Shown piece after piece: positions 16,493 to 45,175 of a stretch of DNA of 64,000 nucleotides (within the stretch, counting starts at the first letter, position 1; each line of letters opens with the position of its first letter). Both the position numbers and the translations under genes were made by a program. The notes below the pieces were generated by a model that saw nothing but the letters and a program-made list of their open reading frames with translations, was not told the origin of the DNA and did not search any database. Location: the NCBI GenBank assembly GCA_040376705.1, contig JBEIQE010000001.1, forward strand, positions 58,193 to 122,192. Reading direction: 5' to 3'. The stretch comes from Micavibrio sp. (GTDB lineage: Bacteria; Pseudomonadota; Alphaproteobacteria; UBA2400).

Positions 16493-16771
16493 ATGACTGA
16501 AGCGGATATCATCCAAATCACCCGCGACGCGATCTGGCTGCTGCTGGTCGTGTGCTCGCCGCTTCTTATTATCGCCATGGTGGTGGGTTTCGTTATCTCG
16601 CTCATTCAGGCGCTGACGCAAATTCAGGAAGCGACTATCGCTTTCGTGCCTAAAATCATCATCATGTTCCTCTCGCTCATGTTTTTGCTGCCGTTCATGA
16701 CGCAAAAGATGATCGACTTCGGCAACCGCCTCTCACCGATGATTATTCAGGTTGGTGCCTCACAAGAGTAG
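16493..16771 (+). CDS. fliQ: Flagellar biosynthesis protein FliQ
   Basis: 92 aa with 2 TM. LLIIAMVVGFVISLIQALTQIQEATIAFVPKI is canonical FliQ. Confidence 0.9.
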   Translation: MTEADIIQITRDAIWLLLVVCSPLLIIAMVVGFVISLIQALTQIQEATIAFVPKIIIMFLSLMFLLPFMTQKMIDFGNRLSPMIIQVGASQE

Positions 16772-18299: not shown

Positions 18300-19843
18300 T
18301 TATATTGATGCCTTATAAGTGTTGTGCCGGCTGGCAGCGTCTTCTGCCATGCCATGAGGGCTTTTTCAAGCCGCTCGGCCTCAGCTGGATTGGCGAGATA
18401 AAGACTTACATAATTGTAGGCAACATTAACGTGTGGCCGGTTGAAGCTGAAATCTGCAACCTTGACCCAGCTGTCAGGCAGCTGTCCTGTAAACCAGGGG
18501 TCATAAATAATAAACAGGCTTAGATTATATCTGTTTGCATAGTCGTCCAGCTCTGCCGGATCCCAGCGATTACCATGCACGCGCAGCTGTCGCACTTCCT
18601 CAGAGCCGAGGCCGTAAATATCGTAAATCGGATAGGGGCTTTGCCAGCTTAGATAACCTATGTCGTTTGCACCAACTGGGTCTTGCCAAAAATCGCGTAC
18701 CAGCCGCGTGAATTGTACCTGCTGTAGATAAATATCCTGACTGGCATAAGGGGTTTTAAGCGTTGTCCAGAAGCTGCTGTGATAACTGGCAACAAAAACA
18801 ATCAGCCACAGTAGCCGGGAAATTGCATTGAACTCTATGCGAGCGATAGTTGGGCGCAGCAAATACATCAATACGATGAAGCTGAACGCGAGCAGATAGC
18901 TTTGGTAACGATCGCCCCATACAATTTTTCCCCCAATAAAATGAGCAATAATGCAGATAAACGCCAGTGCCACGATGCGATTGGCATGTTTGCCTGGCGC
19001 GAACAGCAGAAGTGCTGAGATAATAAGTAATATCCAGCTTCGTGGCTGAATCAGGTTATTGCGGATACGATCAAGAATACTGATGATTGGAGTGTCTATG
19101 TTGTTTACGCCGGTTTTTATCAGAATTGAGGCCGCTACCATGGGCAAGCCAGATGAATGCATATAAGCGGCGTGAATAAGGTGGACGCCCATCTCTATCC
19201 CGCCAACTATTAGGGCTGACATCCTGTATTGTGTGGTGAGCAGCCAGAGCAATGTAATGCCGAACATCGCAAATCCTTCGTAACGGATCATCGGCATCAG
19301 GATGAGTGCTGCCCAGAACCATTTGGGCAGTGGCTTCTTGTCATTCAGGTCGATCAGGCCGGAGAGTACAGCCAGAACAGCTGTAATATGCAGGCTGTGC
19401 TCCATCCCCAGCAGCGGCATACTGTAAAGGTTGCCCGCCAAACCAAGCAGCAAAATTATAGGGGCTGTTGCCCACGCGGGATAAAGAGTGATGAGGTTAA
19501 GCTGGGCCGAGATGCGGCAGAGCAGCCATAGGCTGGTTGCAAGTGCCAGCAGGTTAAGTACAAGTGGGGCAAACACCAAGTCGGCAAAGGGTGCCAGAAG
19601 CCACGGATATATAAGTGAGGATGAGGCTGCTGCCGGAATACCTGCCGTTGTGCCATATTGCCCCGGCAAGAGGCTGGCGATGGCCAGATGGATATAGGCA
19701 TCGTCAACCGCATAAGTGAAATGCCCGTCAGTCAGGTACAGGCTGCAACCCACAAGAACGGCAATAACCAGGCCCGAGAGGGCAAGCGTTTGGGCGTAAA
19801 TACGGGCAGAAGGCATGACGGCACATATAGCTGAGAGCGCCAT
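18296..19843 (-). CDS. Multi-pass membrane protein with C-terminal soluble domain, paralog B (GT-C-like?)
   Basis: 515 aa. It aligns along its full length with paralog A (FTYAVDDAYIHLAIASLLPGQYGTTAGIPAAASS...ANPAEAERLEKAL). Confidence 0.6.
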   Translation of the reverse strand: MALSAICAVMPSARIYAQTLALSGLVIAVLVGCSLYLTDGHFTYAVDDAYIHLAIASLLPGQYGTTAGIPAAASSSLIYPWLLAPFADLVFAPLVLNLLALATSLWLLCRISAQLNLITLYPAWATAPIILLLGLAGNLYSMPLLGMEHSLHITAVLAVLSGLIDLNDKKPLPKWFWAALILMPMIRYEGFAMFGITLLWLLTTQYRMSALIVGGIEMGVHLIHAAYMHSSGLPMVAASILIKTGVNNIDTPIISILDRIRNNLIQPRSWILLIISALLLFAPGKHANRIVALAFICIIAHFIGGKIVWGDRYQSYLLAFSFIVLMYLLRPTIARIEFNAISRLLWLIVFVASYHSSFWTTLKTPYASQDIYLQQVQFTRLVRDFWQDPVGANDIGYLSWQSPYPIYDIYGLGSEEVRQLRVHGNRWDPAELDDYANRYNLSLFIIYDPWFTGQLPDSWVKVADFSFNRPHVNVAYNYVSLYLANPAEAERLEKALMAWQKTLPAGTTLIRHQYK

Positions 19844-21734: not shown

Positions 21735-22658
21735 TTAAGGGGCAGGGTGCGTTAGCGCTTTGGGGTCGAAATACTCGGGCAGCACGCGGCGTAATTGCTG
21801 CTGGCGCAGCGTGAGGCGCTCAATATCAGTGGTAAAATTCTGTGTCCACTGCGCATAGGGCTGCAGGCGTGCAGCCAGCTGCTGCATGCGGCTCTGCGGG
21901 TAATGCTCAATTGCGGTAACAGCGGCTTCAACATAAGGCGCGATTTTATCTGGCGGCAGGGTGAACAGCGCCCAGCGCTGGTCCTGGTCGAGTGCGGTTG
22001 GAATGCGATCTGGCGGGTCGATATAGAAATTCACTTTATCGAGGTCGACGCCATACATTTGCGTATAGCGGCCCTGTGCACCCCGTGCGCCCAGTACAAT
22101 GCTGCCACTGTGGCGGTCATAATTACGCATCCAGATATCGGCTACGCTCAGCGCGGCAAAGGCGGGGGCCAGCTCAGGGTTCTCCTGCAGGAACACAGGG
22201 TAGTGCCGGTCGACCATCATCAGGCTGCACCTGCCGCCTGTGCATACCTCATCAATCGACTTGGCATTTTCATAGGCTACAAGGCTGATGAGAGCATTCG
22301 GCACATCAGGGCGCTGCGGGTTTGTTGCCATAAGCGCTGCTGGAGCATGCGGCAGGCGCAGGTCTTGCAGGATGTCGCTAAAGAATTTCTCACGCAGCAG
22401 GCTGCCGCTGGGCTTATAGCTCTCGCTGTTACAGAAATGATCAGGTTTGAGGTAGCCTATAGCTGTCTCGCTGGCCCTGTATTGGTGCCAGGATTTATAG
22501 CGCGAAGGGCCGATTATTTCGGTAAAACGCTGCGTGATGACTTCCCCGCTCAGGCGGTCAGCCTCCTGCTCAATCGCTACGCTAAAGCTGCGCAGCTCGC
22601 TTAAGCGCGCTACAGCAGCGTTAAAAGCCGGTGAGGGAGCTTTTTTGAAAGCGAGCAT
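21735..22658 (-). CDS. Hypothetical protein (308 aa)
   Basis: The ORF track extends to 23057, but that region overlaps the convergent kinase gene. The internal Met MLAFKK at 22658 is the likely start. There is a Y-D-R-H-S-G-S motif. Confidence 0.5.
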   Translation of the reverse strand: MLAFKKAPSPAFNAAVARLSELRSFSVAIEQEADRLSGEVITQRFTEIIGPSRYKSWHQYRASETAIGYLKPDHFCNSESYKPSGSLLREKFFSDILQDLRLPHAPAALMATNPQRPDVPNALISLVAYENAKSIDEVCTGGRCSLMMVDRHYPVFLQENPELAPAFAALSVADIWMRNYDRHSGSIVLGARGAQGRYTQMYGVDLDKVNFYIDPPDRIPTALDQDQRWALFTLPPDKIAPYVEAAVTAIEHYPQSRMQQLAARLQPYAQWTQNFTTDIERLTLRQQQLRRVLPEYFDPKALTHPAP

Positions 22659-22788
22659 GTCGCGAGGATAGCGACTCCGCGCCTTGAATTTCAAGCGATT
22701 AGAGTAAATCTTTATTAACCATAACCTGCCCAAATGCACAGGGAATTGAAGTCGATTCCTTTTTGACGGGAATTGGCAGAGGGAATTT

Positions 22789-25410
22789 ATGGACGAGAGC
22801 AACAAACCAGCACCCGATAACAAGCCGATGGTAAACGAAATTCCGTTCGCTGTGCCGGCTGTTGTCGTGCCCGAAGTGCTGGTTGCGGTGCAGACGATTG
22901 AAGAGCTCAAGTCCACCACGGCAGGGGTAAAGCCCAGCCGCGTGTTGCTGTTCTCGGGTGGGGTAATTCTCGCTACCGCCATGGCGGGCCTGTTTGTGGC
23001 CTTGGGCGGCAAGAATTTTGGTCTTGAGGTGGACGTACCGGTTATTGCCTCGGTCATGGCGGGTCTGGCGAGCTTCTCGGCGCTGGTGCTGCTGATGGTC
23101 GATCGCTACCAATCCCAGCTTGAGCGCGAACGCGCCCTGATGGTCGAGACAATTGACGAAGGCCTCACTGGCCGCTTCATCACCGGCCCCAATGGCGAGC
23201 TGGTCTTTGCCAATCAGGCGTTCTGGCGGCAGCTGGCCCCATTACCTGAAGGCGCGGACCGCACTAAACCTGAGGCCGTACTGATGAGCTACTTCGCCCG
23301 TGACCCGGGTAGGGATGCTGACTTCAAGCGCGTATCGCAGCAGGCACATGCCGGTCAGTTCAGCGCGTGCGAATTGTTCCTGCGCGATGCTGCAGGCGTA
23401 ACCCATTGCTATCTGCTCGAGGGTTGGCCCTCAGCCAACTACAAGGGCTATGTAAACTGGCGCCTTGAAGACATTACCCCGCGCCTGCAGGTGCAAGAGG
23501 CCATTCAGCGCGAGCAGGCCCGCTGGGCTGATTTTATGGACCATGCGCCGGTTGGTTTCTACTCGGCCGATGCCGAGGGCAAGTTCATCTTCGCCAATTC
23601 GACATTGGCGCGCTGGTTGGGCAGCAATGCCCGCGAAGTGATGGATGGCCTGCGCCTGCATGATGTGATGGTGAAAGCCCCGCTCGATGGCACCAAGTTT
23701 GATATTACGGTTGAGGGCGGCGAGTTCCAGCAGGGCGAATTCACCCTGCGTGGCCCGGGTGGCCGCCAGTTCCAGGCACTGATTGCGCAGACTGTTGATA
23801 AAAGCCGTGAAGGGCTTATCCGCACCCGCGCTGTGGTGCACGATCTTACCGCCGAGCGTGAATGGCAAAGCGCCCTGCAAGAGAGCCAGGCGCGCTTCCG
23901 CCGCTTCTTTGAAGAAAGCCCGATTGGTGTGGCGCTGGTGGCCGAAGGCGGCATGCTGGCGGAGTGCAACCCGGCCTTCCTGAAGATGATTGGTTCGGAT
24001 GCCGCGCATATTCTGGCCCAGCCGCTCGACCGCTTTGTGATTGGTGCGCAGGGTGGGCTTGAGCAGAACCTGGCCCGCGTTGCCTCAGGCGAAGTAACCG
24101 GCATGACGCAAGAAGTGAAGCTGAAGGGCAGTGCCGATCGCGAAATCATGGCACAGCTCTACATTCGCCGCCTTGAGGCAGATGATGTAACCGGCGCGAA
24201 GCTTATTCTGCACTTCATCGATTTGTCTGAGCAGAAGAACCTTGAAGCGCGCTTTGCCCAGTCGCAGAAGATGCAGGCCATTGGCCAGCTGGCGGGCGGT
24301 GTGGCGCACGATTTCAACAACCTCCTTACTGCCATGATCGGTTTCTGCGATCTACTGCTCCTGCGTCACAAGCCGGGCGATGCTTCGTTTGCCGATATCA
24401 TGCAGATCAAGCAGAATGCCAATCGCGCAGCCGGCCTTGTGCGTCAGCTGCTGGCTTTCTCGCGTCAGCAGACACTGCAGCCACGCGTGCTGAACCTTAC
24501 CGATGTGCTGGTTGAACTCTCGAACCTGCTGCGCCGCCTGATTGGCGAGAATATTCAGCTCAACATGCAGCATGGCCGCGAATTGGGCCTCGTGAAAGCC
24601 GATCAGGGCCAGATCGAGCAGGTCATCATCAATATGGCGGTAAACGCGCGCGATGCCATGCCCGCGGGCGGTAAACTCTCCATCACTACCAGCAACTTTG
24701 CGCTCAAGGCACCGCTGCGCCGCGAGCACGATGAAGTGCCGCCGGGTGAGTGGATTGTGACCGAAATATCGGATACCGGTACCGGCATTCCGGCCGATAT
24801 CATTGGCCGTATTTTTGATCCGTTCTTCTCGACCAAAGAAGTGGGCAAGGGCACAGGCTTGGGCCTCTCTACCTGCTACGGTATTGTAAAGCAGACCGGT
24901 GGCTTTGTGTTCGTGGACAGCGAAATGGGCCGCGGCACCAAGTTTACGGTTTACTTGCCGCGCTACACCCGCACGGCGGATGAAATTGCTGAAGTGCAGA
25001 AGCAGGAAACAGCAGCGCAGATTTCGCCCGACCTGACCGGCGCTGGCGTGATCATGCTGATTGAAGATGAAGATGCCGTACGCATGTTCGCGTCGCGTGC
25101 GCTCAAGAACAAGGGTTATACAGTGGTTGAGGCCCGCTCGGGCGACCATGCGCTTGAAGTACTCAAGACCTATACCGGCAAAATCGACCTCATCGTGTCA
25201 GACGTTATGATGCCGGGTACCGATGGCCCGACCACGCTGAAGGAAATTCGCCGCAGCCTGCCCACCATCAAGGCCATTTTCATTTCGGGTTACTCGGAAG
25301 AGCGCCTGAAAGAAAGCTTCGAGACCGGCGAGGCGGTACACTTCCTGCCCAAGCCATTCTCGCTCAAGCAATTGGCCGAGAAGGTGAAAGAAGTTCTGCG
25401 TGAAGGCTGA
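22789..25410 (+). CDS. Hybrid sensor histidine kinase/response regulator, CckA-like (TM - PAS x2-3 - HisKA - HATPase - REC)
   Basis: An N-terminal TM pair is followed by PAS-like segments. The H-box is HDFNNLLTAMIGF, the G-box is GTGLGLS, and the C-terminal receiver is LIVSDVMMPGTDG. Total length is 873 aa. Confidence 0.85.
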   Translation: MDESNKPAPDNKPMVNEIPFAVPAVVVPEVLVAVQTIEELKSTTAGVKPSRVLLFSGGVILATAMAGLFVALGGKNFGLEVDVPVIASVMAGLASFSALVLLMVDRYQSQLERERALMVETIDEGLTGRFITGPNGELVFANQAFWRQLAPLPEGADRTKPEAVLMSYFARDPGRDADFKRVSQQAHAGQFSACELFLRDAAGVTHCYLLEGWPSANYKGYVNWRLEDITPRLQVQEAIQREQARWADFMDHAPVGFYSADAEGKFIFANSTLARWLGSNAREVMDGLRLHDVMVKAPLDGTKFDITVEGGEFQQGEFTLRGPGGRQFQALIAQTVDKSREGLIRTRAVVHDLTAEREWQSALQESQARFRRFFEESPIGVALVAEGGMLAECNPAFLKMIGSDAAHILAQPLDRFVIGAQGGLEQNLARVASGEVTGMTQEVKLKGSADREIMAQLYIRRLEADDVTGAKLILHFIDLSEQKNLEARFAQSQKMQAIGQLAGGVAHDFNNLLTAMIGFCDLLLLRHKPGDASFADIMQIKQNANRAAGLVRQLLAFSRQQTLQPRVLNLTDVLVELSNLLRRLIGENIQLNMQHGRELGLVKADQGQIEQVIINMAVNARDAMPAGGKLSITTSNFALKAPLRREHDEVPPGEWIVTEISDTGTGIPADIIGRIFDPFFSTKEVGKGTGLGLSTCYGIVKQTGGFVFVDSEMGRGTKFTVYLPRYTRTADEIAEVQKQETAAQISPDLTGAGVIMLIEDEDAVRMFASRALKNKGYTVVEARSGDHALEVLKTYTGKIDLIVSDVMMPGTDGPTTLKEIRRSLPTIKAIFISGYSEERLKESFETGEAVHFLPKPFSLKQLAEKVKEVLREG

Positions 25411-25419
25411 TGCCTGCCG

Positions 25420-26043
25420 TTAGCTTTGGTTGAATGGCTTGGCAATAGCGCTTTGTATAGTGGCATGCGTTGCGCGCAGGTTATGCGAGAGCATTACGTC
25501 ATTACCGGCTTCAGATAGTTTGGCAAAAGCAGTGCAAACAATGCGGTCGGCCTCTGCGGGCTCAATCTTATAGAGCCTGCCAATGTTGGCGCAGATCTTT
25601 TTCCATGCACTCGAGGGCTCGGCGAAAGCGCCGGGGCGCAGTTCCTGCTCGGTCACATTAACAGTTTCTGATCTGTCATCCATACCGCGTGCAACCCTGA
25701 TGTCGGTTGAAACCATATGCACGAAGTGATTGGCACTGCCACAAGCCGCCATATCAGCCTGATCGGCATGAGCCTGCTGCACAAACTGGCGCGCGGCTTC
25801 ATCATCCTTCAGGACTGGTTCAAGCACAGCGAAAAATTCCTTATCTCCCTTCAGAAGGGGGCTGCTCGTCAGCTCAGCGCGGGCTTCGGCAATCTGCTGC
25901 TCAATTGGCGGCTGCGGTTTAGCCAGCATGACCGCATGAGCCGACTCCCTGAAGGCATTATACAATGTGCTGCTAATCTCTTCGCGTGTCGCATAGTCCT
26001 GATTGCTGATGGCGATCTGGCTGAGATACTGGCTGCGGATCAT
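25420..26043 (-). CDS. Hypothetical protein (207 aa), downstream of the J-domain gene
   Basis: No recognisable motifs. It is on the same strand as, and 90 bp after, the J-domain gene. Confidence 0.45.
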   Translation of the reverse strand: MIRSQYLSQIAISNQDYATREEISSTLYNAFRESAHAVMLAKPQPPIEQQIAEARAELTSSPLLKGDKEFFAVLEPVLKDDEAARQFVQQAHADQADMAACGSANHFVHMVSTDIRVARGMDDRSETVNVTEQELRPGAFAEPSSAWKKICANIGRLYKIEPAEADRIVCTAFAKLSEAGNDVMLSHNLRATHATIQSAIAKPFNQS

Positions 26044-26132: not shown

Positions 26133-27422
26133 TTAGCCCATTAAATCAGTGTGTTGGTTTGATATGCCGGGCCAGGGCGCGGCTCCCGGCAAACGGCTTT
26201 TTATAGCGCTTACCGCACGCTGCCACCATTTGGGATCGGGGCTGTTTTCAAGCTGCGTGGCGGCGAAGGTCACTTCCATGAAGTAGTCGGGGATATGGCT
26301 TGAGTGAATAACCGCGATTGACGGAATATCCTTAGGCGCAGCGGCGCGGGCCATGGCGATGGTCGGTGCGTCGCCTTCTGGCAGGGTGCAGCCTACCATC
26401 TTGAATGCATCGCCTTGCCTGACCATCTCGAAGGTAGCCATAAGGGCGGGCTCAGCCTGCTCATCTGCCTTGAACAGATAGACATGCCGCATGCCATCGC
26501 TCAGTTTGGCAGGGCGGTTGAACATATGGGTCACACTGAGCGGCAATAGCTCTTCAAGTGTGGCCTGCTTCTGCCGCGCAATATCGCGAATGCGGTCAGC
26601 CCGCACATCAAAATTTTCCTGCGCCTTGGCGATAATGTTATTGGTAACCTCTTCGCTCATCACCGTGGGAGGGGCGGTCTCATCTACCGGGTTATCGGGG
26701 TTATCATAGGTCAGTAGCAGGGGCGGCTGGGCGATGCCAATAGCTACCGCCGTGCGGCGTTGATCGACTGAATTGATAATCACTTCATCGCGCGTATAGG
26801 TAATCGCGAGTTGGGCGGCCTGAGCATATTCATCCGGATACAGAACATGGCCTTTAGTAGTTTCAGCGCCAGTATAGCCTGCGCAAATCCATGCAACGCT
26901 TTCGAGCAGGCTCAGGTAGGTGAGCTTGCTGCCCAGCTGGTCGCGGTAGGTATTACGCAGATCAGTATTCTTAGGGTCAGCTTTATAAAGTTTTGCGATT
27001 AACTCGGTATGGCCTTCAACATAGCCGCTCATGGCCTTAGCTTGCTCAGCCATTCTCTCAAAATTATCATCTCCGTCTTCAAGTAGCGAGTTAAGGTCGA
27101 AACGACCGCCACTCAGGCTGATGATGGCTGTGCCGTTAGTGCTTACAAACTCCGGCTTCTCGGCTTTGAACTTGGCAAGGCGCTCGTCGTACAGCGGGCG
27201 CAGCGCATCGTTGAGCAGAATGGTGGTGCAGTCTTTCACCAGATTACGGGTACGTTCGGCAGCACGCTGAATTTCAGCACCAAGGCGGATCATTTTGTCC
27301 GGGTGGTTTTCGGCCAAACGCTGGCGTGCAGTTGCGTGGATCTCGTCCTTACTGGCGTCGGGTGTAAGCCCAAGGAACGCATAGCGGTCGAAAATATAGT
27401 CAACGCCTTCAACTGGATCCAT
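26133..27422 (-). CDS. J-domain (DnaJ N-terminal domain) protein with roughly 350-aa unknown C-terminal region
   Basis: The N-terminus YAFLGLTPDASKDEIHATARQRLAENHPDK has the HPD tripeptide of J-domains. There is no zinc-finger or DnaJ C-terminal domain. Length is 429 aa. Confidence 0.65.
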   Translation of the reverse strand: MDPVEGVDYIFDRYAFLGLTPDASKDEIHATARQRLAENHPDKMIRLGAEIQRAAERTRNLVKDCTTILLNDALRPLYDERLAKFKAEKPEFVSTNGTAIISLSGGRFDLNSLLEDGDDNFERMAEQAKAMSGYVEGHTELIAKLYKADPKNTDLRNTYRDQLGSKLTYLSLLESVAWICAGYTGAETTKGHVLYPDEYAQAAQLAITYTRDEVIINSVDQRRTAVAIGIAQPPLLLTYDNPDNPVDETAPPTVMSEEVTNNIIAKAQENFDVRADRIRDIARQKQATLEELLPLSVTHMFNRPAKLSDGMRHVYLFKADEQAEPALMATFEMVRQGDAFKMVGCTLPEGDAPTIAMARAAAPKDIPSIAVIHSSHIPDYFMEVTFAATQLENSPDPKWWQRAVSAIKSRLPGAAPWPGISNQHTDLMG

Positions 27423-27546
27423 GGCATCCCCCCTGTAAAGGCAAGCAGGCTAGCACTAGCGCTGGCGCTTTTGCACTGGTTTTCCGGCAATTTCAGCTGC
27501 TTGTTTAATGGGTAATTCCCCGCTAGGCTCGGGTTAATAAATAAGT

Positions 27547-28581
27547 ATGGGCAGGGTATATATGGGGCAATCACGGGACAGGCGTAATCCGCATGGCTGG
27601 CTTGGCGCGCTTGCGGGTTTTAACGGCCAGCAACAGCGCTGGGCTGCGGCAGCATTGGCGCATCTCGAGACACAATATAATAACGACCCACACAATATAC
27701 TTAAACTGGCCGAGGCGGCGCCTGCTGGCCTGACCGGCGAGATCCAACTGCGCCAGCTGGGGCGGGATTATGCAGCTTTCTGGTTGCTGCAGCGGTTTGA
27801 TTACAAGCAGGACCCAACGCCCGAACAGCAACAGGCCTTGTGGGAGCGCACATTAAGCATCCCCACCTTCCGCACGTTCGATTTGGTGCATGCGGCCATG
27901 GGGTGGGATATAACCACTCTGCGCGTTGGTGTGTCTCGGGATACTGCCGCCATGCGTTTTGCGGCCAGCCCGTTTGCTGATGAGCTGGAAGAGCTGTTGG
28001 CCTATGTGCCGGTGGCCGATAAAAAGGCTTATCTAGCCCTGCGCAACAGGCAGGGGTTTACTGCTGTGCATACGAGCGCGCATGCCAGCACACTGGCCGT
28101 GCTGGCGGCGCAGGGCGCCAGCCTTGAGGCCACTACGCGCATAGAGGTTGCAGGCTGCAAGATGGATGTGACTATAGCCCACCTCGCGGTACTCAATGGT
28201 CGCGTGGGCCAGACGCTTGAGCTGGTGCGCCTGCAGCCAGAGTTGTTCAAGCCAGACAAGCTGCTTGATTACACGCCGATGGAAGCCGGGCAGATGCAGC
28301 TTGAAGACATGCTCGAGGGCTATGGCCGCAAGCAGTTCAGCCAGCTTATCATCAGCGCGTTTACGGCCATTGCCAGCAAGGGCGAGCTGAATGCTGTTAG
28401 CCAGGTACCTGCCGAACAGCAGGATGCACTGGCCCAGCATTACGCCAATATTGCGCGCTGTGTGAATATCCCTGCGCATGTGCAGGGCAAGCCGCTGCCT
28501 TACCCCGAGCATGCGGATGTGCTGGGCCAGCTTGTTAAAACAGCACCGGTCAAGCCGCCAGAGAAAATGGGGCTGAATTGA
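27547..28581 (+). CDS. Ankyrin-repeat protein, paralog 1 (shared novel N-terminal domain plus ANK repeats)
   Basis: ANK-like repeats are GFTAVHTSAHASTLAVLAAQGASLE and TIAHLAVLNGR. The N-terminal domain NPHGWLGALAGFNGQ...DYAAFWLLQRF is shared with the next two ORFs. Confidence 0.65.
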   Translation: MGRVYMGQSRDRRNPHGWLGALAGFNGQQQRWAAAALAHLETQYNNDPHNILKLAEAAPAGLTGEIQLRQLGRDYAAFWLLQRFDYKQDPTPEQQQALWERTLSIPTFRTFDLVHAAMGWDITTLRVGVSRDTAAMRFAASPFADELEELLAYVPVADKKAYLALRNRQGFTAVHTSAHASTLAVLAAQGASLEATTRIEVAGCKMDVTIAHLAVLNGRVGQTLELVRLQPELFKPDKLLDYTPMEAGQMQLEDMLEGYGRKQFSQLIISAFTAIASKGELNAVSQVPAEQQDALAQHYANIARCVNIPAHVQGKPLPYPEHADVLGQLVKTAPVKPPEKMGLN

Positions 28582-29519
28582 GCATGAACCAGCGCAAACC
28601 CACCGGCAGCTTTAACAACCCCTATGGCCGCCTTGGCGAAATGGCAGGCTTTAAGGGTAAGCCAGCTGCATGGCAGGCTGCAGCCGAAGCGCGGCTGATG
28701 GAGCGCTATTATAGCGACCCGGATGGTATCATTTATGAAACCAAACGGGCAGCACTCGCCGCCAGTAAGAGCGTAGAAGGCGCGCAGGAAGCGCTGGATG
28801 AGCTGCGGCAGGATTATGCCGCCTATTGGCTAATTAAACGCCTGAAGGGCGAGCCGCTGCCGGATAAAGATGAGCAGGCGCACCACTGGAAATCGGCCTT
28901 CATCGCTGCGCCAGACCGCCAGCTGGCACTCACGCTTGCTGTTGCCGGATTTGAGACGGTGGATATGCGGGTGGACGATGACCCGATACTCAGCTCTTTT
29001 GTGTTTTCGGCCACCGCCAATGAGCTTGAGGATTTCTTGCAGCTTATGCCGGCTGATAAGCGCGCCGAGCATATCAACATCAAAGGCGATGCTGATATGA
29101 CACCCATGCACATCGCCAGCTTTGCGGCAGGGCCGGGTAGCTTGGCGGTTTTACAGCAGCATGGTGGCGACCTGACGGCGCTTATGACCATCACCATGGG
29201 GACGGGTGAAATTATAAGGGGAAATCCTGCGCATCTGGCGGTACTGAACGGTCGGCCGGATATGACTGCCGAACTGATGGCGCTCGACCGCGGCCTGTTT
29301 ACCCGCTACGTGCCTGAAATAAAGTATACGCCGGATGAAATGGTTGAGGCCTGTGCCAAGGTCACCAACAATATCAATAAGGAAATTCGCAAGGCGGCTA
29401 ATATTGCTGCGTATGCAATCGACCGGCCGGTACCATTCCCCGAAGTAGGCTGGATCCTCAAGCAGCTGACATCGGCCACGGCACCACGTGCGCGGGTTAT
29501 GGGGCATACACTCAATTAG
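28578..29519 (+). CDS. Ankyrin-repeat protein, paralog 2
   Basis: MTPMHIASFAAGPGSLAVLQQHGGDL and NPAHLAVLNGRPD are ANK-like. The N-terminus is NPYGRLGEMAGFKGK...DYAAYWLIKRL. It overlaps paralog 1 by 4 bp. Confidence 0.65.
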   Translation: MSMNQRKPTGSFNNPYGRLGEMAGFKGKPAAWQAAAEARLMERYYSDPDGIIYETKRAALAASKSVEGAQEALDELRQDYAAYWLIKRLKGEPLPDKDEQAHHWKSAFIAAPDRQLALTLAVAGFETVDMRVDDDPILSSFVFSATANELEDFLQLMPADKRAEHINIKGDADMTPMHIASFAAGPGSLAVLQQHGGDLTALMTITMGTGEIIRGNPAHLAVLNGRPDMTAELMALDRGLFTRYVPEIKYTPDEMVEACAKVTNNINKEIRKAANIAAYAIDRPVPFPEVGWILKQLTSATAPRARVMGHTLN

Positions 29520-29581
29520 GGCTTGCACTGCCGCGTGCAGCCGCTAGCCTCATAGCCAAATATAAAAGGGAGTATGGGATT

Positions 29582-30616
29582 ATGGCCAAACGTAAAAGCA
29601 AATCGCTGCTGGGTATCTATGCATCGCTCACCTCGAGCAGCCCTATCGCGCGCGAACAGGCCTTAACCCGCATCAACGGTATGTATGATGGCGATGGCCA
29701 GCGTATTGCCTATGCCTCCGAGTGTGCTTCTAAAAAGATTTTCTTTTACGGTAACAGTGAGCACGGTATGCAGCCCGACCCCAATGTCGTGCGCGCCGAC
29801 TTTGCCGCATGGCTGGTGATCAACAAGGTCAACCCGGGGCCGGACAGCAAACCGCTAAGTGCTGAAGCCGAATGGAAGTTGATGGAGCGTATCAGCAAGA
29901 TCGACGACAAGTTGCTAACGCTCATGGCGCTTGAGGCCGGTATTTCACCAATGCCACCCGCCAGAGCTGAGCTTAAGGAGACCAGCGCGCTGCAGCTGTT
30001 CTGCGAGAGTGCCAAGGCGGCCGAGGTGCATGCGTTTCTGGCGCTGGTGCCCGAGGCTACGCGCACCGAGGTCGTCAATTATATCGATGGCAAAGGCCGC
30101 AACGCCGTGCACTGCGCCACCCATAACCCAAATGTAGGCGTTATAACCGAGCTGAAGGGGGCGGGAGCAGATCTGGACGTGGTCTGGCAGGCCAGACTCG
30201 GCAAGCGCGAGCCTAAGCGCGCGGCGCATATGGCCGTGCTGGCGGGTAATCTGGGCGTAGCGACTGAGCTGGGCGGCTTGGCCCTGCACCAGTTTACCGC
30301 ATCGCCCGCATGCCCTGTGACTCCGTATGAGATGGGGATGCTGCGTATTCAGAATAATTTGTCCGAAGTGCCGCGCCCTGTGCCGATGAATGCTAAAGCC
30401 GAACACGCCAAGAACCCGATGCAGATGCTACCCCCCACCAACCCGCAAGAGGCGGACGAGGCCAAAGAGCGCGCCCTGCGCCTGCAGCGTATTATGGAAG
30501 CTACGGATATTGCGGCTGGCTTTTTGGGTATAAGCGCACCATTTGGTAACACAGGCAAGGTTGAGGCTGCGCAGCGTGCTGTTGGCGCCAAAAGCAACCA
30601 GCATGGTCTTAACTAA
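29582..30616 (+). CDS. Ankyrin-repeat protein, paralog 3
   Basis: GRNAVHCATHNPNVGVITELKGAGADLD and AAHMAVLAGNLG are ANK-like. The N-terminal region is more diverged (DFAAWLVINKV). Confidence 0.6.
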   Translation: MAKRKSKSLLGIYASLTSSSPIAREQALTRINGMYDGDGQRIAYASECASKKIFFYGNSEHGMQPDPNVVRADFAAWLVINKVNPGPDSKPLSAEAEWKLMERISKIDDKLLTLMALEAGISPMPPARAELKETSALQLFCESAKAAEVHAFLALVPEATRTEVVNYIDGKGRNAVHCATHNPNVGVITELKGAGADLDVVWQARLGKREPKRAAHMAVLAGNLGVATELGGLALHQFTASPACPVTPYEMGMLRIQNNLSEVPRPVPMNAKAEHAKNPMQMLPPTNPQEADEAKERALRLQRIMEATDIAAGFLGISAPFGNTGKVEAAQRAVGAKSNQHGLN

Positions 30617-30796
30617 CTTGCCCGTAAGCATAATGCCAAATACGCTTATATTATAGGCATTAGGGCCGGTATTTTTTACATAGCCTTTCGCTGCCCCTTT
30701 GCACTTGCAAAAATTGTTAAGAACACCCACCTTATAAGTTAATGAGCAGGGATTCGCGTTTGTCTTTGCTTCTGATTTTTACAGAAGGGTTTTCCC

Positions 30797-33205
30797 ATGG
30801 TCGATCTTCCCCCCAAAGGTGTTCTCTTTCCGGTCCTGCCGCTGCGTGACATCGTCGTTTTCCCGCACATGATTGTGCCGCTCTTTGTCGGGCGCGAAAA
30901 GTCGGTCAAGGCCCTTGAGGACGTGATGAAGGAGGACAAGCAGATCCTGCTCGTCACCCAGAAGAACGCCGGTCAGGATGACCCGGGCCCGGCCGACCTC
31001 TACTCAATTGGTGTGCTTGGCACTGTGCTGCAGCTCCTCAAGCTGCCGGACGGCACCGTGAAGGTGCTGGTCGAAGGCCAGCAGCGTGCCCGCATTATGC
31101 GCTATTCGGATAACCCCGAGTTCTATCAGGCCTATGCCGAGCTGGTGAAGGACACCGAGCCGGAAGGTCAGGAAACTGATGCCCTCATGCGCGCTGTAAC
31201 TTCGGAGTTCGAGCAGTATGTAAAGCTCAACAAGAAGATTCCGCCAGAAGTCCTGGTCTCACTCGGCCAAATCGACGGTGCAGGCAAGCTGGCCGATACT
31301 GTAGCCTCGCATCTTGCTCTCAAGCTGGCTGAAAAGCAGCAGCTGCTCGAAGCCGCTGACGTGACCGAGCGCCTAGAGAAGATCTACGGCCATATGGAAG
31401 GCGAGATCGGTGTTCTGCAGGTCGAAAAGCGCATCCGTAACCGCGTGAAGCGCCAGATGGAGAAGACCCAGCGTGAGTACTACCTGAATGAGCAGATGAA
31501 GGCCATTCAGAAGGAACTTGGCGACGGTGAAGATGGCCGCGACGAGATGAGCGAGCTTGAAGACCGCATCAAGAAAACCAAGCTGAGCAAAGAAGCGCGC
31601 GACAAGGCCATGGGCGAGCTCAAGAAGCTGCGCAACATGAGCCCGATGAGCGCTGAAGCAACGGTGGTACGCAACTACCTCGACTGGATGCTGAGTATTC
31701 CCTGGAAAAAGCGCAGCAAGCTCAAGCATGACATCAACTATGCCGAAGACGTGCTGAACGAAGACCACTACGGCCTCGAGAAGGTCAAGGAGCGTATCCT
31801 TGAGTATCTCTCGGTGCAGCAGCGTACCGAGAAGGTGCGTGGTCCCATCCTCTGCCTCGTTGGTCCTCCGGGTGTGGGTAAAACCTCGCTGGGCAAGTCC
31901 ATCGCCAAGGCCGTAGGCCGCAGCTTTGTGCGTATGTCGTTGGGCGGCGTGCGTGATGAAGCCGAAGTACGCGGCCACCGCCGTACCTACATCGGCTCCA
32001 TGCCCGGCAAGGTCATTCAAGGGATGAAGAAGGCCAAGCAGAGCAATCCGCTGTTCCTTCTCGATGAAATTGACAAGCTGGGTCAGGACTATCGTGGCGA
32101 TCCGTCATCGGCGCTTCTTGAGGTGCTGGATCCGGAGCAGAACGCTACATTCAATGACCACTATCTCGAGGTTGATTACGACCTTTCGGATACGCTGTTC
32201 ATCTGCACGGCCAACTCGCTCAACATGCCGCAGCCGCTGCTTGACCGTATGGAAATCATCCGCCTCTCGGGTTACACCGAAGATGAGAAGGTTGAAATCG
32301 CCAAGCGCCATCTGGTTGCCAAGCAGGTAAAGGACAACGGCCTCAAGCCGGAAGAATTCGAGCTGGCGGACGATGCTTTGCGGGCTGTTATCCGTACGTA
32401 TACCCGCGAAGCTGGTGTGCGTAGCCTCGAGCGTGAAATCGCCAAACTGTGCCGCAAGGCCGTGAAACTGATTGTCAGCAAGAAAGAGGAAAAGGTGGTG
32501 GTAACTACCGACAAGCTCGAGAAGCTGCTGGGCGTTGCCAAGTACCGTTATGGTGAGATTGAGGATACCGATATGGTGGGTGTTACCACCGGCCTCGCCT
32601 GGACCGAGGTTGGCGGCGATATCCTGCAGATCGAAGCTGTTGCCCTGCCGGGCAAGGGCAAGGTCTCGGCTACCGGTAAGCTTGGCGATGTCATGAAGGA
32701 ATCGGTACAAGCTGCCGAGAGCTTCGTGAAGTCGCGCGCTACCATCTATGGTATCAAGCCCACTTACTTCGGTCGCCGCGATATCCATGTGCATGTGCCG
32801 GAAGGTGCGACGCCCAAGGATGGCCCAAGTGCGGGTGTAGCAATGGTGGTCTCGATTGTTTCCGTCATGACTGGTATTCCGGTACGCAAGGATGTCGCCA
32901 TGACCGGCGAGATCTCGCTGCGTGGCCGCGTATTGCCTATCGGCGGCCTGAAGGAGAAGCTGCTGGCAGCCCTGCGTGCAGGCATCAAGACAGTGCTGAT
33001 CCCGAAGGAAAACGAGAAGGATCTGGCCGAGATTCCGGCCAACGTGAAGGAAGGCCTCGAGATTGTGCCTGTGACTATGGCGGATGAAGCTTTGGCCCGT
33101 GCGCTCTCCCGTCCGCTGGTACCGATCGAGTGGAGCGAGAAGGATGAAATCGCCGAGAATGCCCGCCTGAAAGGCGATGGCGGCGATGAAGCCCGCGCTC
33201 ACTAA
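30797..33205 (+). CDS. lon: ATP-dependent Lon protease
   Basis: An N-terminal LON domain is followed by an AAA+ Walker A (GPPGVGKTS) and a C-terminal protease domain with catalytic Ser in PKDGPSAG. Length is 802 aa. Confidence 0.95.
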   Translation: MVDLPPKGVLFPVLPLRDIVVFPHMIVPLFVGREKSVKALEDVMKEDKQILLVTQKNAGQDDPGPADLYSIGVLGTVLQLLKLPDGTVKVLVEGQQRARIMRYSDNPEFYQAYAELVKDTEPEGQETDALMRAVTSEFEQYVKLNKKIPPEVLVSLGQIDGAGKLADTVASHLALKLAEKQQLLEAADVTERLEKIYGHMEGEIGVLQVEKRIRNRVKRQMEKTQREYYLNEQMKAIQKELGDGEDGRDEMSELEDRIKKTKLSKEARDKAMGELKKLRNMSPMSAEATVVRNYLDWMLSIPWKKRSKLKHDINYAEDVLNEDHYGLEKVKERILEYLSVQQRTEKVRGPILCLVGPPGVGKTSLGKSIAKAVGRSFVRMSLGGVRDEAEVRGHRRTYIGSMPGKVIQGMKKAKQSNPLFLLDEIDKLGQDYRGDPSSALLEVLDPEQNATFNDHYLEVDYDLSDTLFICTANSLNMPQPLLDRMEIIRLSGYTEDEKVEIAKRHLVAKQVKDNGLKPEEFELADDALRAVIRTYTREAGVRSLEREIAKLCRKAVKLIVSKKEEKVVVTTDKLEKLLGVAKYRYGEIEDTDMVGVTTGLAWTEVGGDILQIEAVALPGKGKVSATGKLGDVMKESVQAAESFVKSRATIYGIKPTYFGRRDIHVHVPEGATPKDGPSAGVAMVVSIVSVMTGIPVRKDVAMTGEISLRGRVLPIGGLKEKLLAALRAGIKTVLIPKENEKDLAEIPANVKEGLEIVPVTMADEALARALSRPLVPIEWSEKDEIAENARLKGDGGDEARAH

Positions 33206-34048: not shown

Positions 34049-35512
34049 TTAGTTAGGCTTGGTGAACTCATAAATCGCGGTTATGCCCGTGCGATAGCGC
34101 TCATGAATGGTATATCCGGCAGATAGCAGGCCATTTTTGATATCCATATCGTTATACCAGTCATCCGCAAATACGCCCCAAAGCGCGCCGGAGGTATGGG
34201 CGATTTCAGCAATCGCAGCTGGCCTTGCAGTACCACAGCTTGGCGCTGTTATGCGGCTATGCACCTGTGCAGTCCATTGAGTTTTAAGGCCGACGATATC
34301 AACCAGTTTAAAGCGGGTGCTAGCATGCGCAATGTAACCGGCATCATGCACCAGCAGAGCGTTATTTGCTGGAATATGCTGGTTCGCCCATGTAATAGCG
34401 CTTTTATTGTCATCTCCACGGCGCAGTACATGCGGTGTGATGGCAAAGGTAAGGCTGCAGATAATACCAATCGCGCAAACTAGCAGACTGCTGTGCTGAA
34501 TGTTTTTAGTGGCCTTTGGGCTGGTAGCCATAACAGTCAGGAAGCAGAAAATCCATGCAGGGATCAGTATGGGGCTGTAACGGCCGGTATAGAAATTGAG
34601 CAGTAATGCCGAGGGAAAAATAAGGCCATAGGTAATCAAGAAGGCTGTTGTAAAAACAATTGAGCAGATAAAAAGTTTCTGTCGGCTCGGGAAAAACAGG
34701 AACAGGCAGATAGGCATGCTGATGAGCATCAGTTCAATCAGCCCCTTGAGGCTGATACCTGCTTTTTGTAATAGCGGCAGGCAGCTTTGCGCATAGAACA
34801 TCGACTTGGCGGTCCATGTCTGCGGTAGCCACAGACCAGTTTGTGCATGCACAAACAATACTGGCGGTAGCGCTGCCGCCAGCCCCAACAGGCCCATAAA
34901 TATGGGGGCAGGGAGTTGCATAACCTTATGCTGCCTCAGCTCATATGCCTTAAACAGAAAAGCCGGAATAGCCAGTGCCGCCAGCTCGATGCGCACATGG
35001 ACAGCAAGGCCGCACAAGGCCGCCAGCACAAAGGCGCTGCTGGTACGTTTATCCATAAGTAAAACCAGGAGCCACAGGCTGGTGCCCAGAGCGAGGCCGG
35101 TTTCGAGGCCGTTGAGCAGGTGTAAAGGCATGATGCCGACCAGCAGGAACATCGCCAGCGCATAGGGGGCAGCTTTGCCAAGCTTGAGCTGCTGCGTTAC
35201 CGCAAAGGCAGCTGCAGCATAAACCCAGCAACCAAGTATCGCGGCACAGAGCAGGGCAGGCTCGGTAGGCATGACTCTGGAGAAGATAGCAACCACCAGC
35301 AGGTGGATAGTACTGGTTGATCCGCTGATGGATGGCGTGCCGTAAAGTGGATCGACGGTGGTGCCTTGTAGCAGGAGGAAGGCATTACGGCCTGTTATAT
35401 AAGCATCATCCAGAAAGAAAGCTGGATGAATCAGGCCTGCAAAGGCCAGTGCCATAGCGGCTAATGCGCTTAGAGCGATAGCTGTTTGCATGCTGCACAG
35501 GGATAATTTCAT
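34049..35512 (-). CDS. Multi-pass membrane protein with C-terminal soluble domain, paralog C (same family as 16743-19843)
   Basis: PAFFLDDAYITGRNAFLL and the C-terminal DAGYIAHASTRFKLVDIVGLKT align with paralogs A and B. The ORF track runs to 35635. The likely start is the internal Met (MKLSL/MQTAIAL), near 35512-35491. Confidence 0.55.
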   Translation of the reverse strand: MKLSLCSMQTAIALSALAAMALAFAGLIHPAFFLDDAYITGRNAFLLLQGTTVDPLYGTPSISGSTSTIHLLVVAIFSRVMPTEPALLCAAILGCWVYAAAAFAVTQQLKLGKAAPYALAMFLLVGIMPLHLLNGLETGLALGTSLWLLVLLMDKRTSSAFVLAALCGLAVHVRIELAALAIPAFLFKAYELRQHKVMQLPAPIFMGLLGLAAALPPVLFVHAQTGLWLPQTWTAKSMFYAQSCLPLLQKAGISLKGLIELMLISMPICLFLFFPSRQKLFICSIVFTTAFLITYGLIFPSALLLNFYTGRYSPILIPAWIFCFLTVMATSPKATKNIQHSSLLVCAIGIICSLTFAITPHVLRRGDDNKSAITWANQHIPANNALLVHDAGYIAHASTRFKLVDIVGLKTQWTAQVHSRITAPSCGTARPAAIAEIAHTSGALWGVFADDWYNDMDIKNGLLSAGYTIHERYRTGITAIYEFTKPN

Positions 35513-35751
35513 AGCGCGGTATAGCTCTTGAAGGGAAACGCTAGTTGCTGACCGCACAGCATGATATTTTTGTCGTAGTTGAAATTCGCTTGGGCCATAG
35601 TCTTGCTTTGGTAGCAGCTTTTTGCCCCGGGCCATGCGGCCCAGCTGATGAATGTTTTGAACGGGCCGTTTGGTCTCATGCCTGCAAGTTAGCGGGTGTA
35701 AGGTAATTTGACAGCCCTTTTTTATTGGCGGTTTTGGGTTATGTTCTGGCT

Positions 35752-37020: not shown

Positions 37021-38277
37021 ATGGGTGTAGGTCTTCCCCGCGGGGCTAATACGTCAATTCAGGCTGCAATTGCCCCTGAAAACGGCATTTTCCGCGTGAA
37101 TCTTGAGTATAACGGGGATAATCCTGCGCGTCCGTCGATCGATGCGGTCGCCTTCCTGCTCACCGATACCGGCAAGGTTCGCGGCGACTCCGATATGGTT
37201 TTCTATAACCATAAAACCATCGCCGAAGGCGGGGTGGAGATGCTCGATGGCGCAGATGTCGCCGGCCTGCGCCAACAGCCTTTTATCATCGACCTCAACA
37301 AGCTGCCAGCTGGGATTGTACGCATCTGCTTCTGCCTGGTTGCGGATGGCACCGGTGTGCAGTACATCGCCCAGCTCAGCCGTATGGCCATTCGCCTCAT
37401 GGGTGGCACCACCCGCACCGAGGTTGCCAGTAGCAGCCTTGAGCTGGCCGGCGCCGCCAAGGAAACGGCGCTTGTATTGGGCGAACTTTATTTGCGTAAT
37501 GGCGAATGGAAGTTCAAGTCCATCGGGCAGGGGTATGAGCAAGGTCTGGCTGCTTTGGCGCAGAGCTATGGTATTGTAGTTGCCGAAGCTGCGCAGGCCA
37601 CCGGCACCATGGCCCGCCCTAACGAAACACTGCCGCCTTCAGCGGCTGATCGTTCGGCCATTCCCAAGCAGCGGTTTGACCGGCCGGCTATGGGGTTTGA
37701 CGAAATCGTGATCAATCTGGTGTGGAACGCCACGCCGCCGGAAGAGCCGATAACCGATGCGCCGGTGGCTAAAAAGGGCCTGTTCAGCTCCATCGTCGCG
37801 CCGTCCAAGCCGCGCCCGATCGATCTTGACCTCTGCTGCCTTTACGAGCTGAACGATGGCTATCGTGGCGTGATCTCGGCTTTGGGCGATAATTACGGTG
37901 CCTTCAATTCGGCCCCGTTCATGGAGCTGATGGGTGATGAGCGCAAGGGCACCGGCACCCAAGGCGAGGTTATCCGTATCAACGGTGTGCGCTGGAACGA
38001 AATTACCCGCATTCTTGTTTATGCCATGATTTTTGAGGGCTCGCCTAATTGGGCACTGGCATCGGGGCGCTGCGTTATCCGTGTGCCGGATCAGATGCCG
38101 CTGAACGTGAAGCTCGATCAGAATGTGAACGACAAGCGCGCCTGCACCATTGCCTTGATTGAGAATGATGGCGGCCACATCAGCATCCAGAAGCGGGTTG
38201 AGGCGTTCAAGAACCCGCGCGAGGTCGATCTGTATTACGGTTGGGGGCTGCGCTGGGGCGCAGGCACCAAGGAATAG
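37021..38277 (+). CDS. TerD-domain protein (two-domain, 418 aa)
   Basis: The N-terminal half aligns with the downstream TerD (VAFLLTDTGKVRGDSDMVFYNH...GELYLRNGEWKFKSIGQGY). The C-terminal half is a second, diverged TerD-like domain. Confidence 0.65.
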   Translation: MGVGLPRGANTSIQAAIAPENGIFRVNLEYNGDNPARPSIDAVAFLLTDTGKVRGDSDMVFYNHKTIAEGGVEMLDGADVAGLRQQPFIIDLNKLPAGIVRICFCLVADGTGVQYIAQLSRMAIRLMGGTTRTEVASSSLELAGAAKETALVLGELYLRNGEWKFKSIGQGYEQGLAALAQSYGIVVAEAAQATGTMARPNETLPPSAADRSAIPKQRFDRPAMGFDEIVINLVWNATPPEEPITDAPVAKKGLFSSIVAPSKPRPIDLDLCCLYELNDGYRGVISALGDNYGAFNSAPFMELMGDERKGTGTQGEVIRINGVRWNEITRILVYAMIFEGSPNWALASGRCVIRVPDQMPLNVKLDQNVNDKRACTIALIENDGGHISIQKRVEAFKNPREVDLYYGWGLRWGAGTKE

Positions 38278-38307
38278 AAACAGCGAATTAAACCAGAGGA
38301 GTAGAAT

Positions 38308-38895
38308 ATGCCTGTAGCATTATCCAAGGGCGAAAACGTAAGTCTGACGCGGGAAGCTCCTGACCTTACCAACATTATTGTTGGTCTGGGCTGGAGCCCG
38401 CGCGAAACCGATGGCGAAGATTTTGATCTTGATGCCTCTGCCTATCTGCTCGATGCGGATGGAAAAGTGCCGAGCGATAACGACTTCATCTTCTACAACA
38501 ACCTCGTATCACCCTGTGCCTCGGTGGTGCATTCCGGCGATAATCTGACCGGTGGTGCCGAGGGGGTTGCGTCTGATTCCGAGCAGCTGAAGATCAATCT
38601 GGTGACCCTGCCGCCAGTGATCGAGCGGATTGCCATTTGCGTTTCCATTCACATGGCTGAGCTGCGCCAGCAGAACTTCGGTATGGTGGGCGGGGCTTAT
38701 ATCCGCATCATCAACGACCGCGGTGGCAGCGAGCTGGCCCGTTTCGATTTGAGTGAAGACGCCTCGGTTGAAACGGCCATGATCTTTGGTGAGCTGTACC
38801 GTTATGGTGCCGAGTGGAAGTTCCGCGCTTCGGCTCAGGGCTTCCCGGGCGGATTGGGCGAGCTGGCCCGTCACTTTGGTGTGAACGTCGAATAA
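38308..38895 (+). CDS. TerD family stress protein
   Basis: 195 aa. GLGWSPRETDGEDFDLDASAYLLDADGKV...DNDFIFYNN...GDNLTGG...GELYRYGAEWKFRASAQGF are classic TerD/TerZ signatures. Confidence 0.8.
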   Translation: MPVALSKGENVSLTREAPDLTNIIVGLGWSPRETDGEDFDLDASAYLLDADGKVPSDNDFIFYNNLVSPCASVVHSGDNLTGGAEGVASDSEQLKINLVTLPPVIERIAICVSIHMAELRQQNFGMVGGAYIRIINDRGGSELARFDLSEDASVETAMIFGELYRYGAEWKFRASAQGFPGGLGELARHFGVNVE

Positions 38896-40313: not shown

Positions 40314-40559
40314 GTTTCCGGGCCTCCTAGTAGGTGAGTGTGCTGTTAGTTGATTCTTTCAGCAGTCCCGGGAATTGACCCTAACGGAATGCCGGTTAAC
40401 TGGAGGTTAACGGAATTGATAAAGAGCAAGAGTCGTAGGGACTTAGCAAGCACTTTGTTGCATTGCATATAAAATCAGCCTGCGACTCGATAGATAATTC
40501 CAAAAGCCCTTAACATCAGGGCAGCATCGCTATTTAATGCCGGTTGTACAGGAGACACC

Positions 40560-44140: not shown

Positions 44141-45175
44141 TTAGGCCTCGGCATCGGGCTTCTGGATGATAACGCCAGTCCAGCCAAGGCCGTTATATTC
44201 CTGATAGCCGATGGTTTTGGCAAAGGCCACGAGGGTACCATCACTCTCATAATAATGGCCTTTGGTTTTACCCTGCGCGTTGAGGACAAAGCTTTGCAGC
44301 ATGCCCTGTCCATCGCTGGCGGCAATCACGCGGTTCTTGTTATCGAGCAGCAGCACGCGGCTACGCTTCCATTCATCAGCCGAGAGGGTAGGCTCACTGC
44401 ATACAATGGTTTTCGATTGTTCCGGCCAGTCGAAGAACACACCGATAACGCCCAGCGTTTCGCCATGTACTTCGCCACCACGGCGCACCGCTGTTGCGTA
44501 AACGGAAACGGGCAGGTTCTCATGCAGGGGGTCGTTGAAGATATCGTCCACCACATATTCATCGCCGCTGCGGGTGGCGATTGCGCCGTTGAACCATTGG
44601 GTGCGGCCCACGCTGGCCCCCATGACGCGCTGGTATTTACCGGCGTTGGAGCAGGCCACTACATTGCCGGTTTTATCAACCAGCACGAGGTTCATATAAA
44701 CCGAGTAGAAGCGGTTGATCAGCGCCAGACGCTTGATGGCGTGTTCGATATTCGCAGGGGTGAGGTCGGCCATGCACTTGTAGAAGGCGTCATCAGTGGC
44801 CCACCAGCGCACGTCGGCAGTGCGCTCGTAAAGATTACGTACAATCAGCTGCACCAGCGTTTGCGCCATTTCCGTCAGGCGGGTGCTGTCGCGCTCGGCA
44901 AACTGGTCCGAGAGCTGGCTGGTCTGGGTCATGATGTCGCCCAGCACGCGGGTACGCAGATCCTTGGAATTCTTGGCCGCCTGAGAGGCCAGTGATTTTA
45001 CCTCGCCCGCAACCACGGCAAAGCCCTTGCCGAAATCACCCGCACGCACGGCTTCAATCGTGGCATTGAGGGCGAGCAGGTTAGTCTGATGGGCGATTTT
45101 CTCGTTGGTAGCGGCAAATTTCTGCACTTCGATCTGAATGGTATCGATAATCTCACGGATTTTGATATTCGACAT
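44141..45175 (-). CDS. MCP signalling-tip fragment fused to C-terminal Cache-like sensor domain (atypical soluble chemoreceptor-like protein)
   Basis: The N-terminal roughly 70 aa read [39 protein letters not shown], the methyl-accepting tip consensus. There is no TM or HAMP. The C-terminal roughly 200 aa have a Cache-like pattern ([11 protein letters not shown]...GVIGVFFDW). Confidence 0.6.

Follow-up and report, generated by a model that had tools for sequence, protein, structure and literature searches.

The 64-kb window analysed here, the whole 64,000-nucleotide (nt) stretch taken from the Micavibrio sp. contig JBEIQE010000001.1, with positions counted from the first letter of the stretch, contains three consecutive open reading frames (ORFs), A1, A2 and A3, all on the plus strand at 27.5-30.6 kb and encoding paralogous ankyrin-repeat (ANK) proteins with a previously undescribed N-terminal domain (N-domain). 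Their best explanation, on which confidence stands midway between acceptance and doubt, is that they are soluble ANK proteins which cooperate as adaptors or scaffolds in an intracellular module specific to their lineage. This reading is favoured because no catalytic signature was found in A1-A3, because the ankyrin stack is a protein-binding device, because the proteins look cytoplasmic and because the paralogs are kept together and coupled. The initial annotation of the window had described ANK-containing paralogs with a novel N-terminal domain and had suggested, among other possibilities, a scaffold family for protein-protein interactions; all of these points are supported.

The three proteins are true paralogs, related far beyond chance. 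A1 and A2 match in tblastn with an E value of ~1e-27 (34% identity), A1 and A3 with 3e-9 (23% identity), and A3 matches the A2 ortholog of a relative with 2e-10; the tandem of three ankyrin paralogs described initially is thereby upheld, and there is no fourth copy of the family elsewhere in the window. The family as a whole belongs to the ankyrin-repeat superfamily, whereas the window proteins taken singly fail Pfam thresholds. Alone, A1 and A2 give no ANK match at E<=1 and A3 matches Ank_2 at 13 bits (E 0.15), below the 27.3-bit gathering cut-off; a scan of each protein against NCBIfam likewise gave nothing significant. A profile built from nine members, by comparison, matches ankyrins and designed ankyrin repeat proteins (DARPins) in the PDB with E values from 2e-23 to 1e-8 through positions ~132-231, including Ankyrin-1/2 (2e-23, summed over repeats) and a designed three-repeat protein (1.8e-8). 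Ank_2 itself is matched at E<=0.01 by eight of 21 family members, the best at 3.4e-7. The repeats are stacked helix-turn-helix units of ~33 residues with beta-hairpin fingers and number about three, namely one cap-like and two canonical repeats with a possible degenerate fourth, in fair agreement with the three to four initially counted per protein. Proteins outside the family that were matched in an exhaustive search of 1.84 billion representative proteins align at profile positions ~130-250 in numerous repeated stretches of long proteins, as is expected of generic ANK proteins. In comparison with known ankyrin domains (Pfam clan Ank: PF12796, PF13606, PF00023; ankyrin-R/B, DARPins), the window proteins have only about three, very divergent repeats, and these are flanked by an N-domain and a C-terminal region (C-region) without known relatives.

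The N-domain is shared by all three proteins, as initially noted, but it is all-helical and extends over ~120 rather than ~90 amino acids (aa). The AlphaFold2 model of A1 (predicted local distance difference test, pLDDT, 81.6; predicted template modelling score, pTM, 0.76) predicts a six-helix N-terminal domain at residues 12-112, a stack of helix pairs with a beta-hairpin in the centre at ~129-229, long helices at 239-272 and 284-307, a short helix at 315-326 and a disordered tail at 328-339. When the N-domain is modelled alone the six-helix fold is confident (pLDDT 89.5, pTM 0.84). It is without a relative in sequence or fold: its profile found none in the PDB (best E 0.34), Foldseek returned no match at E<=0.001, and in the exhaustive search the domain was confined to the family itself, all of which agrees with its initial description as novel. 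Nor is the N-domain a degenerate ANK stack. For the C-region, too, a profile search of the PDB found no relative.

Signatures of the family were taken from the 21-member alignment. These are, first, GRLGELAGF close to the N-terminus in A1 and A2 types, with LLxxYAS instead in A3 types, and then Y..DP..I and R-DYAA-WL; A1 and A2 match the NP-x-G-x-LG motif reported initially exactly, whereas A3 has a degenerate version (LLxxYASL ... ADFAAWLV). More C-terminal signatures are G-x-TA-x-H ... GADL, AH-x-AVL-x-G ... EL and NLAA-x-A-x-D-x-P-x-PF. In proteins of the A2 type, the first of the long C-terminal helices is missing ~38 residues. A hydrophobic residue followed by Asn ([LFVMP]N) forms the C-terminal end in 17 of the 21 members, drawn from all subfamilies, and the remainder of the tail varies. 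The C-terminal helical region, the NLAAxAxDxPxPF motif and the hydrophobic-Asn end were absent from the earlier description.

The A1 start codon is most likely the ATG at 27562 and not that at 27547, since orthologs begin MGQ and a conserved ribosome-binding block, GGGCAGGG, lies 5 nt upstream of it. With this start, the intergenic region separating A1 from the divergent neighbour (a gene with a weak J domain, hereafter J-like) measures 139 bp instead of the 124 bp first given. For A2, the gene caller used ATG 28584, and ATG is likewise present in both orthologs; the gap from the A1 stop is then 2 nt in the window and 1 nt in two contigs of relatives, L002 and L005. The 4-bp overlap of two genes claimed initially arises only with TTG 28578 as the A2 start. 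Whichever start is used, A1 and A2 are predicted to be tightly coupled. The A3 start codon, ATG 29582, is preceded by a GGGAG ribosome-binding site. A consensus scan predicted no intrinsic terminator on the plus strand inside the array, where terminator-like sites are no commoner than in shuffled sequence.

Table 1. Positions of the array genes, the regions of their proteins and the flanking elements in the window
Feature	Coordinates	Strand	Description
cckA-type hybrid histidine kinase	22789-25410	+	upstream anchor; NF046020, 736 bits, below the 1000-bit equivalog cut-off
207-aa orphan	25420-26043	-	downstream of the J-like gene; no family match
J-like orphan	26133-27422	-	429 aa; weak J domain at residues 13-79 with HPD
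Divergent spacer, J-like gene to A1	27423-27561		conserved blocks GCTTGTTTA...CCCGCTAGGCT and AATAAATAAGTATGGGCAGGGTA, window versus L002
A1	27562-28581	+	339-aa family member; alternative ATG further 5' at 27547
A1 N-domain	27562-27927		residues 1-122
A1 ANK region	27928-28254		residues ~123-231
A1 C-terminal part	28255-28578		helices, NIPAH..PLPYPE motif, tail ending GLN
A2	28584-29519	+	311-aa family member; 313 aa with TTG 28578 as start
A2 N-domain	28584-28973		
A2 ANK region	28974-29306		
A2 C-region	29307-29516		short; ends TLN
A3	29582-30616	+	344-aa family member; most divergent subfamily
A3 N-domain	29582-29965		
A3 ANK region	29966-30301		
A3 C-region	30302-30613		ends GLN
Sigma-32-type promoter 5' of lon	30704-30736		CTTGCAA (30704-30710)-N15-CCCACCTTATA (30726-30736)
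lon protease	30797-33205	+	downstream anchor of the locus

The family is extremely rare and limited to one uncultured alphaproteobacterial clade. In the exhaustive search ~13 clusters matched over their full length, and all other matches listed aligned through the ANK region only. Even with the 21-sequence profile, a word-indexed search among 5.8 billion proteins yielded only six, a scan of 241 million metagenome records for the A3 subfamily added one contig of 1.4 kb, and a scan of the genome collection (GTDB, 185,579 species) with an alignment of the three proteins found no family member. For most of the contigs that carry the family, the CckA of the relative is 72-95% identical to that of the window, some of these identities being measured on C-terminal kinase fragments only. 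The nearest CckA in the genome collection (Azospirillum and others) is 54% identical, and the scan there returned 80 loci at or below this identity, with neither lon nor any family member lying within 10 kb in any of them. While CckA identities of 72-95% are found on metagenome contigs, the clade itself seems to be absent from, or masked in, the genome collection. Only in the clade of the window are cckA and lon separated by no more than ~5 kb.

Within the clade the family adjoins cckA, lon or both, in one to three copies, in seven of the eight contigs of relatives that have context, often with a J-like or a 207-aa orphan close by; one A3-like gene is found near secDF instead. The window reads cckA, 207-aa orphan (-), J-like gene (-), A1 A2 A3, lon. 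In L002 the order is cckA, J-like gene (-), A1 A2 A3, lon; in L005 it is cckA, A1 A2 A3, cydBA (-); and in both L091 and L092 it is cckA, a homolog of the 207-aa orphan (-), A2-like and A3-like genes, lon. L086 has cckA, J-like gene (-), one copy and lon, then TerD genes as in the window, and L087 has fliQ fliR flhB cckA, an unrelated 214-aa gene, one A1-like copy and lon. The contexts of L089 and L090 are cckA followed by an A2-like gene and an A3-like gene followed by lon, respectively. A pair of TerD-domain genes 3' of lon (37021-38895) keeps its position in L086 (15061-16917; 49% and 78% identity), a more distant relative, indicating that synteny extends well past the ANK genes. In the neighbour-joining tree the A1, A2 and A3 types form distinct old subfamilies beside a small fourth group, and orthologous triads occur in the same order in L002 and L005, so that the three subfamilies are old orthologous lineages and the triad is ancient and occasionally reduced, not a recent expansion. 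The view that the array is expanding by duplication is therefore not sustained, some relatives carrying only one or two copies.

Comparison of the window with L002, for which synonymous divergence (dS) is near saturation and the ratios of nonsynonymous to synonymous divergence (dN/dS) are rough, places the array among rapidly changing genes. CckA (94% identity, dN 0.046, dN/dS 0.050), FliR (86%, 0.086, 0.086) and FlhB (84%, 0.097, 0.092) are followed by A3 (76%, 0.18, 0.10), A2 (71%, 0.20, 0.14) and A1 (53%, 0.46, 0.33), such that A1-A3 evolve 4-10 times faster than the neighbouring cckA, with the divergence distributed across all regions of the proteins. The J-like gene (42%, 0.57, 0.33) is the fastest-evolving gene measured. 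A1-A3 are real genes under purifying selection. That they are decaying or spurious ORFs, or resemble ANK proteins by chance in low-complexity alanine-rich sequence, is excluded for practical purposes, although the lack of an above-threshold Pfam match for any of the three and their alanine- and leucine-rich composition would have favoured it. The GC content of the array, both overall and at third codon positions (GC3), matches that of the neighbouring genes, and recent horizontal transfer was rejected on this native composition together with the synteny.

On the adaptor or scaffold reading, A1-A3 would act by binding other proteins and not by catalysis. The stack of about three repeats would form the binding surface, clients being held through the ANK groove, and the N-domain and conserved C-terminal tail would make family-specific contacts. 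The spacer shared with the divergent J-like gene would drive all three genes as a single transcription unit, A1 and A2 would be translationally coupled, and the products would cooperate, probably in a hetero-oligomer that serves as adaptor or scaffold; this joint action is proposed because ancient paralogs are kept together, on what would be one transcript, with A1 and A2 coupled. Most likely they would bind particular client proteins inside the cell, presumably in the cytoplasm, so as to hold or present them, with the J-like and 207-aa orphans as optional partners. The module, situated between cckA and lon, would be peculiar to one clade, inherited vertically and evolving fast. A number of points weigh against this. 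Co-transcription and hetero-oligomerisation are suggested by gene spacing, the partner, client and complex are putative, and the AlphaFold models were built on shallow alignments of 7 and 16 sequences. Given that L086 and L087 have one copy at the locus and L091 has two, the triad is not obligatory, and the absence of the J-like gene from L005 and L087, with the 207-aa orphan shared only with L091/L092, indicates that the partners are dispensable. Fast evolution of A1 and the J-like gene would also fit an outward-facing conflict role. If the adaptor or scaffold reading is correct, the family would represent a domain family not described before, in which N-domain, C-region and tail motif are joined to a minimal ankyrin stack, and would place ANK proteins in a stable, vertically inherited cytoplasmic module of an alphaproteobacterium of apparently free-living type, a warning that not every ANK gene of bacteria should be taken for a host effector. 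The steady cckA-lon placement leads to the testable hypothesis that the family is linked to regulated proteolysis or to the cell cycle. The practical weight is limited, given that the clade is uncultured, the family tiny and the function putative.

It is conceivable that A1-A3 are instead ANK effectors, exported by a system encoded elsewhere and perhaps recognised through the conserved C-terminal tail, whose ANK groove would bind eukaryotic host or prey proteins. The rate of evolution of the family would suit such a role, as would the richness of the window in large orphan ORFs and the conserved end on a disordered tail, type IV secretion signals being C-terminal. The general association of bacterial ANK genes with intracellular bacteria (PMC3563639) also speaks for it. 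Nevertheless, this is unlikely, and the proposal in the initial annotation of an effector or host-interaction module gained no positive support. No signal peptide or membrane segment is present in A1-A3, nor in the J-like protein or the 207-aa orphan, and the search of the 64-kb window for secretion systems detected flagellar export genes but no type IV, type VI or non-flagellar type III (injectisome) gene. The window is a core chromosomal region with flagellar genes (flgF/G-type, fliL, fliM, fliP, fliR, flhB), CheZ, a methyl-accepting chemotaxis protein (MCP), several PAS/GAF/CHASE3 kinases, AmtB, carbonic anhydrase, LpxR, TerD and AlaRS, a content that looks like that of a free-living, motile, sensor-rich alphaproteobacterium. 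In contrast to the translocated ANK proteins (Legionella AnkB/AnkC/AnkX, Coxiella Ank, Anaplasma AnkA, Wolbachia ANK), to which there is no specific similarity beyond the ANK stack, that to AnkC being no greater than to any other ANK protein, the window genes have native composition and a core-genome position fixed beside cckA and/or lon in most relatives. The tight translational coupling of the paralogs, moreover, suggests a stoichiometric complex.

The position of the array raises the further possibility of a proteostasis module linked to Lon or to chaperones, in which A1-A3 would either themselves be substrates of Lon or bring clients to it as adaptors or modulators; the hydrophobic-Asn tail would be a recognition signal for the downstream Lon, and the J-like neighbour would recruit Hsp70. 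In this regard, lon is directly 3' of the family in the window and in L002, L086, L087, L090 and L091, cckA-lon adjacency occurs only in the clade (none of the 80 GTDB loci), the [LFVMP]N end is kept although the rest of the tail varies, and the weak J domain of the neighbour has the tripeptide HPD in this genome. There is also a formal precedent in LarA of Caulobacter, which binds and activates Lon via a helix and, after it, an unstructured, hydrophobic pentapeptide at the C-terminus (PMC10665427). The resemblance lies in a helix that precedes a short, unstructured tail in which a hydrophobic residue is conserved close to the C-terminal end, and in a gene family tied by position to lon in an alphaproteobacterium. 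However, adjacency is not function, and this scenario is improbable, more so than that of exported effectors. The sigma-32-type promoter of lon has a core that is invariant in six loci of the clade (window, L002, L091, L090, L086 and L087), so that lon appears to be a heat-shock gene directly 3' of the ANK array and outside its transcript; no sigma-32 promoter was recognised upstream of A1. In L005 the triad lacks lon downstream, and one A3-like gene is near secDF. The known C-terminal degrons of Lon that PMC10665427 names end in His, as does LarA, an 89-aa heat-shock protein, whereas the family has 311-344-aa ANK proteins ending in Asn in the window; there is no sequence relationship and the likeness is one of analogy only. 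HPD, furthermore, is not kept in the J-like orthologs and the J-like gene is often absent. The narrower proposal, that the family consists of clade-specific Lon adaptors or modulators whose Asn tail docks Lon and whose ANK groove and N-domain hold clients, is more doubtful still. On this proposal the cckA cell-cycle locus would be connected to regulated proteolysis, the J-like orphan would feed Hsp70, and the AAA+ protease adaptors would gain a new class that is based on ankyrin repeats and has a new C-terminal recognition signal. A literature search found no paper that connects ANK proteins with cckA or lon.

The divergent spacer contains blocks (GCTTGTTTA...CCCGCTAGGCT and AATAAATAAGTATGGGCAGGGTA) conserved between the window and L002, and these are presumed to be the promoter and ribosome-binding site of the array. 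A CtrA box (TTAA-N7-TTAA) is absent from this spacer. The J-like gene, transcribed divergently from the array, is present in L002 (8592-9857) and L086 (8677-9861) and absent from L005, L087 and L091. Its product was initially assigned to a J-domain operon, a label that is weak given the score against PF00226 (E 1.1e-5; 25.8 bits, below the 27.8-bit cut-off) and the replacement of HPD in the window by HTD in L002 and HED in L086; NCBIfam DnaJ models score ~23 bits and J domains in the PDB give E 0.03. The conserved HPD tripeptide is required to stimulate Hsp70, and the J-like protein may not function as an Hsp70 co-chaperone throughout the clade. Its N-terminal ~65 residues match the DnaJ profile, as in DnaJ/Hsp40 and DjlA-type co-chaperones, whereas the C-terminal ~345 aa are private to the clade, with only two homologs among 5.8 billion proteins.

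The 207-aa orphan, a possible accessory component, has a homolog with 31% identity between cckA and the array in L091 (3-635) and L092 (71-724); L091, which carries this homolog, is without the J-like gene. The 214-aa gene at the same position in L087 was compared and is unrelated to the orphan. A domain common to the family and either neighbour was rejected by hhalign (probability <=1%), and PADLOC models gave no match for A1-A3, the J-like protein or the 207-aa orphan.

Elsewhere in the window, three full CtrA-type boxes are found where 0.32 would be expected by chance, two (2050-2064 and 2193-2207) in the divergent spacer upstream of fliL and a third (40396-40410) between amtB and a TMEM43-like gene. 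Six large ORFs of 440-1182 aa (6319-9867, 13391-14902, 16743-18299, 18296-19843, 21735-23057 and 34049-35635), lie mostly in or beside the flagellar cluster and match no Pfam family at E<=1e-5; they may be flagellar components that have diverged strongly, or additional orphans specific to the clade. Beside tRNA-Gln (45496-45569), a 344-aa ORF on the minus strand (44141-45175) has an MCP signalling match (residues 20-93) preceding dCache (79-238), the reverse of the usual order in chemoreceptors, and could be a rearranged or fragmented receptor gene.

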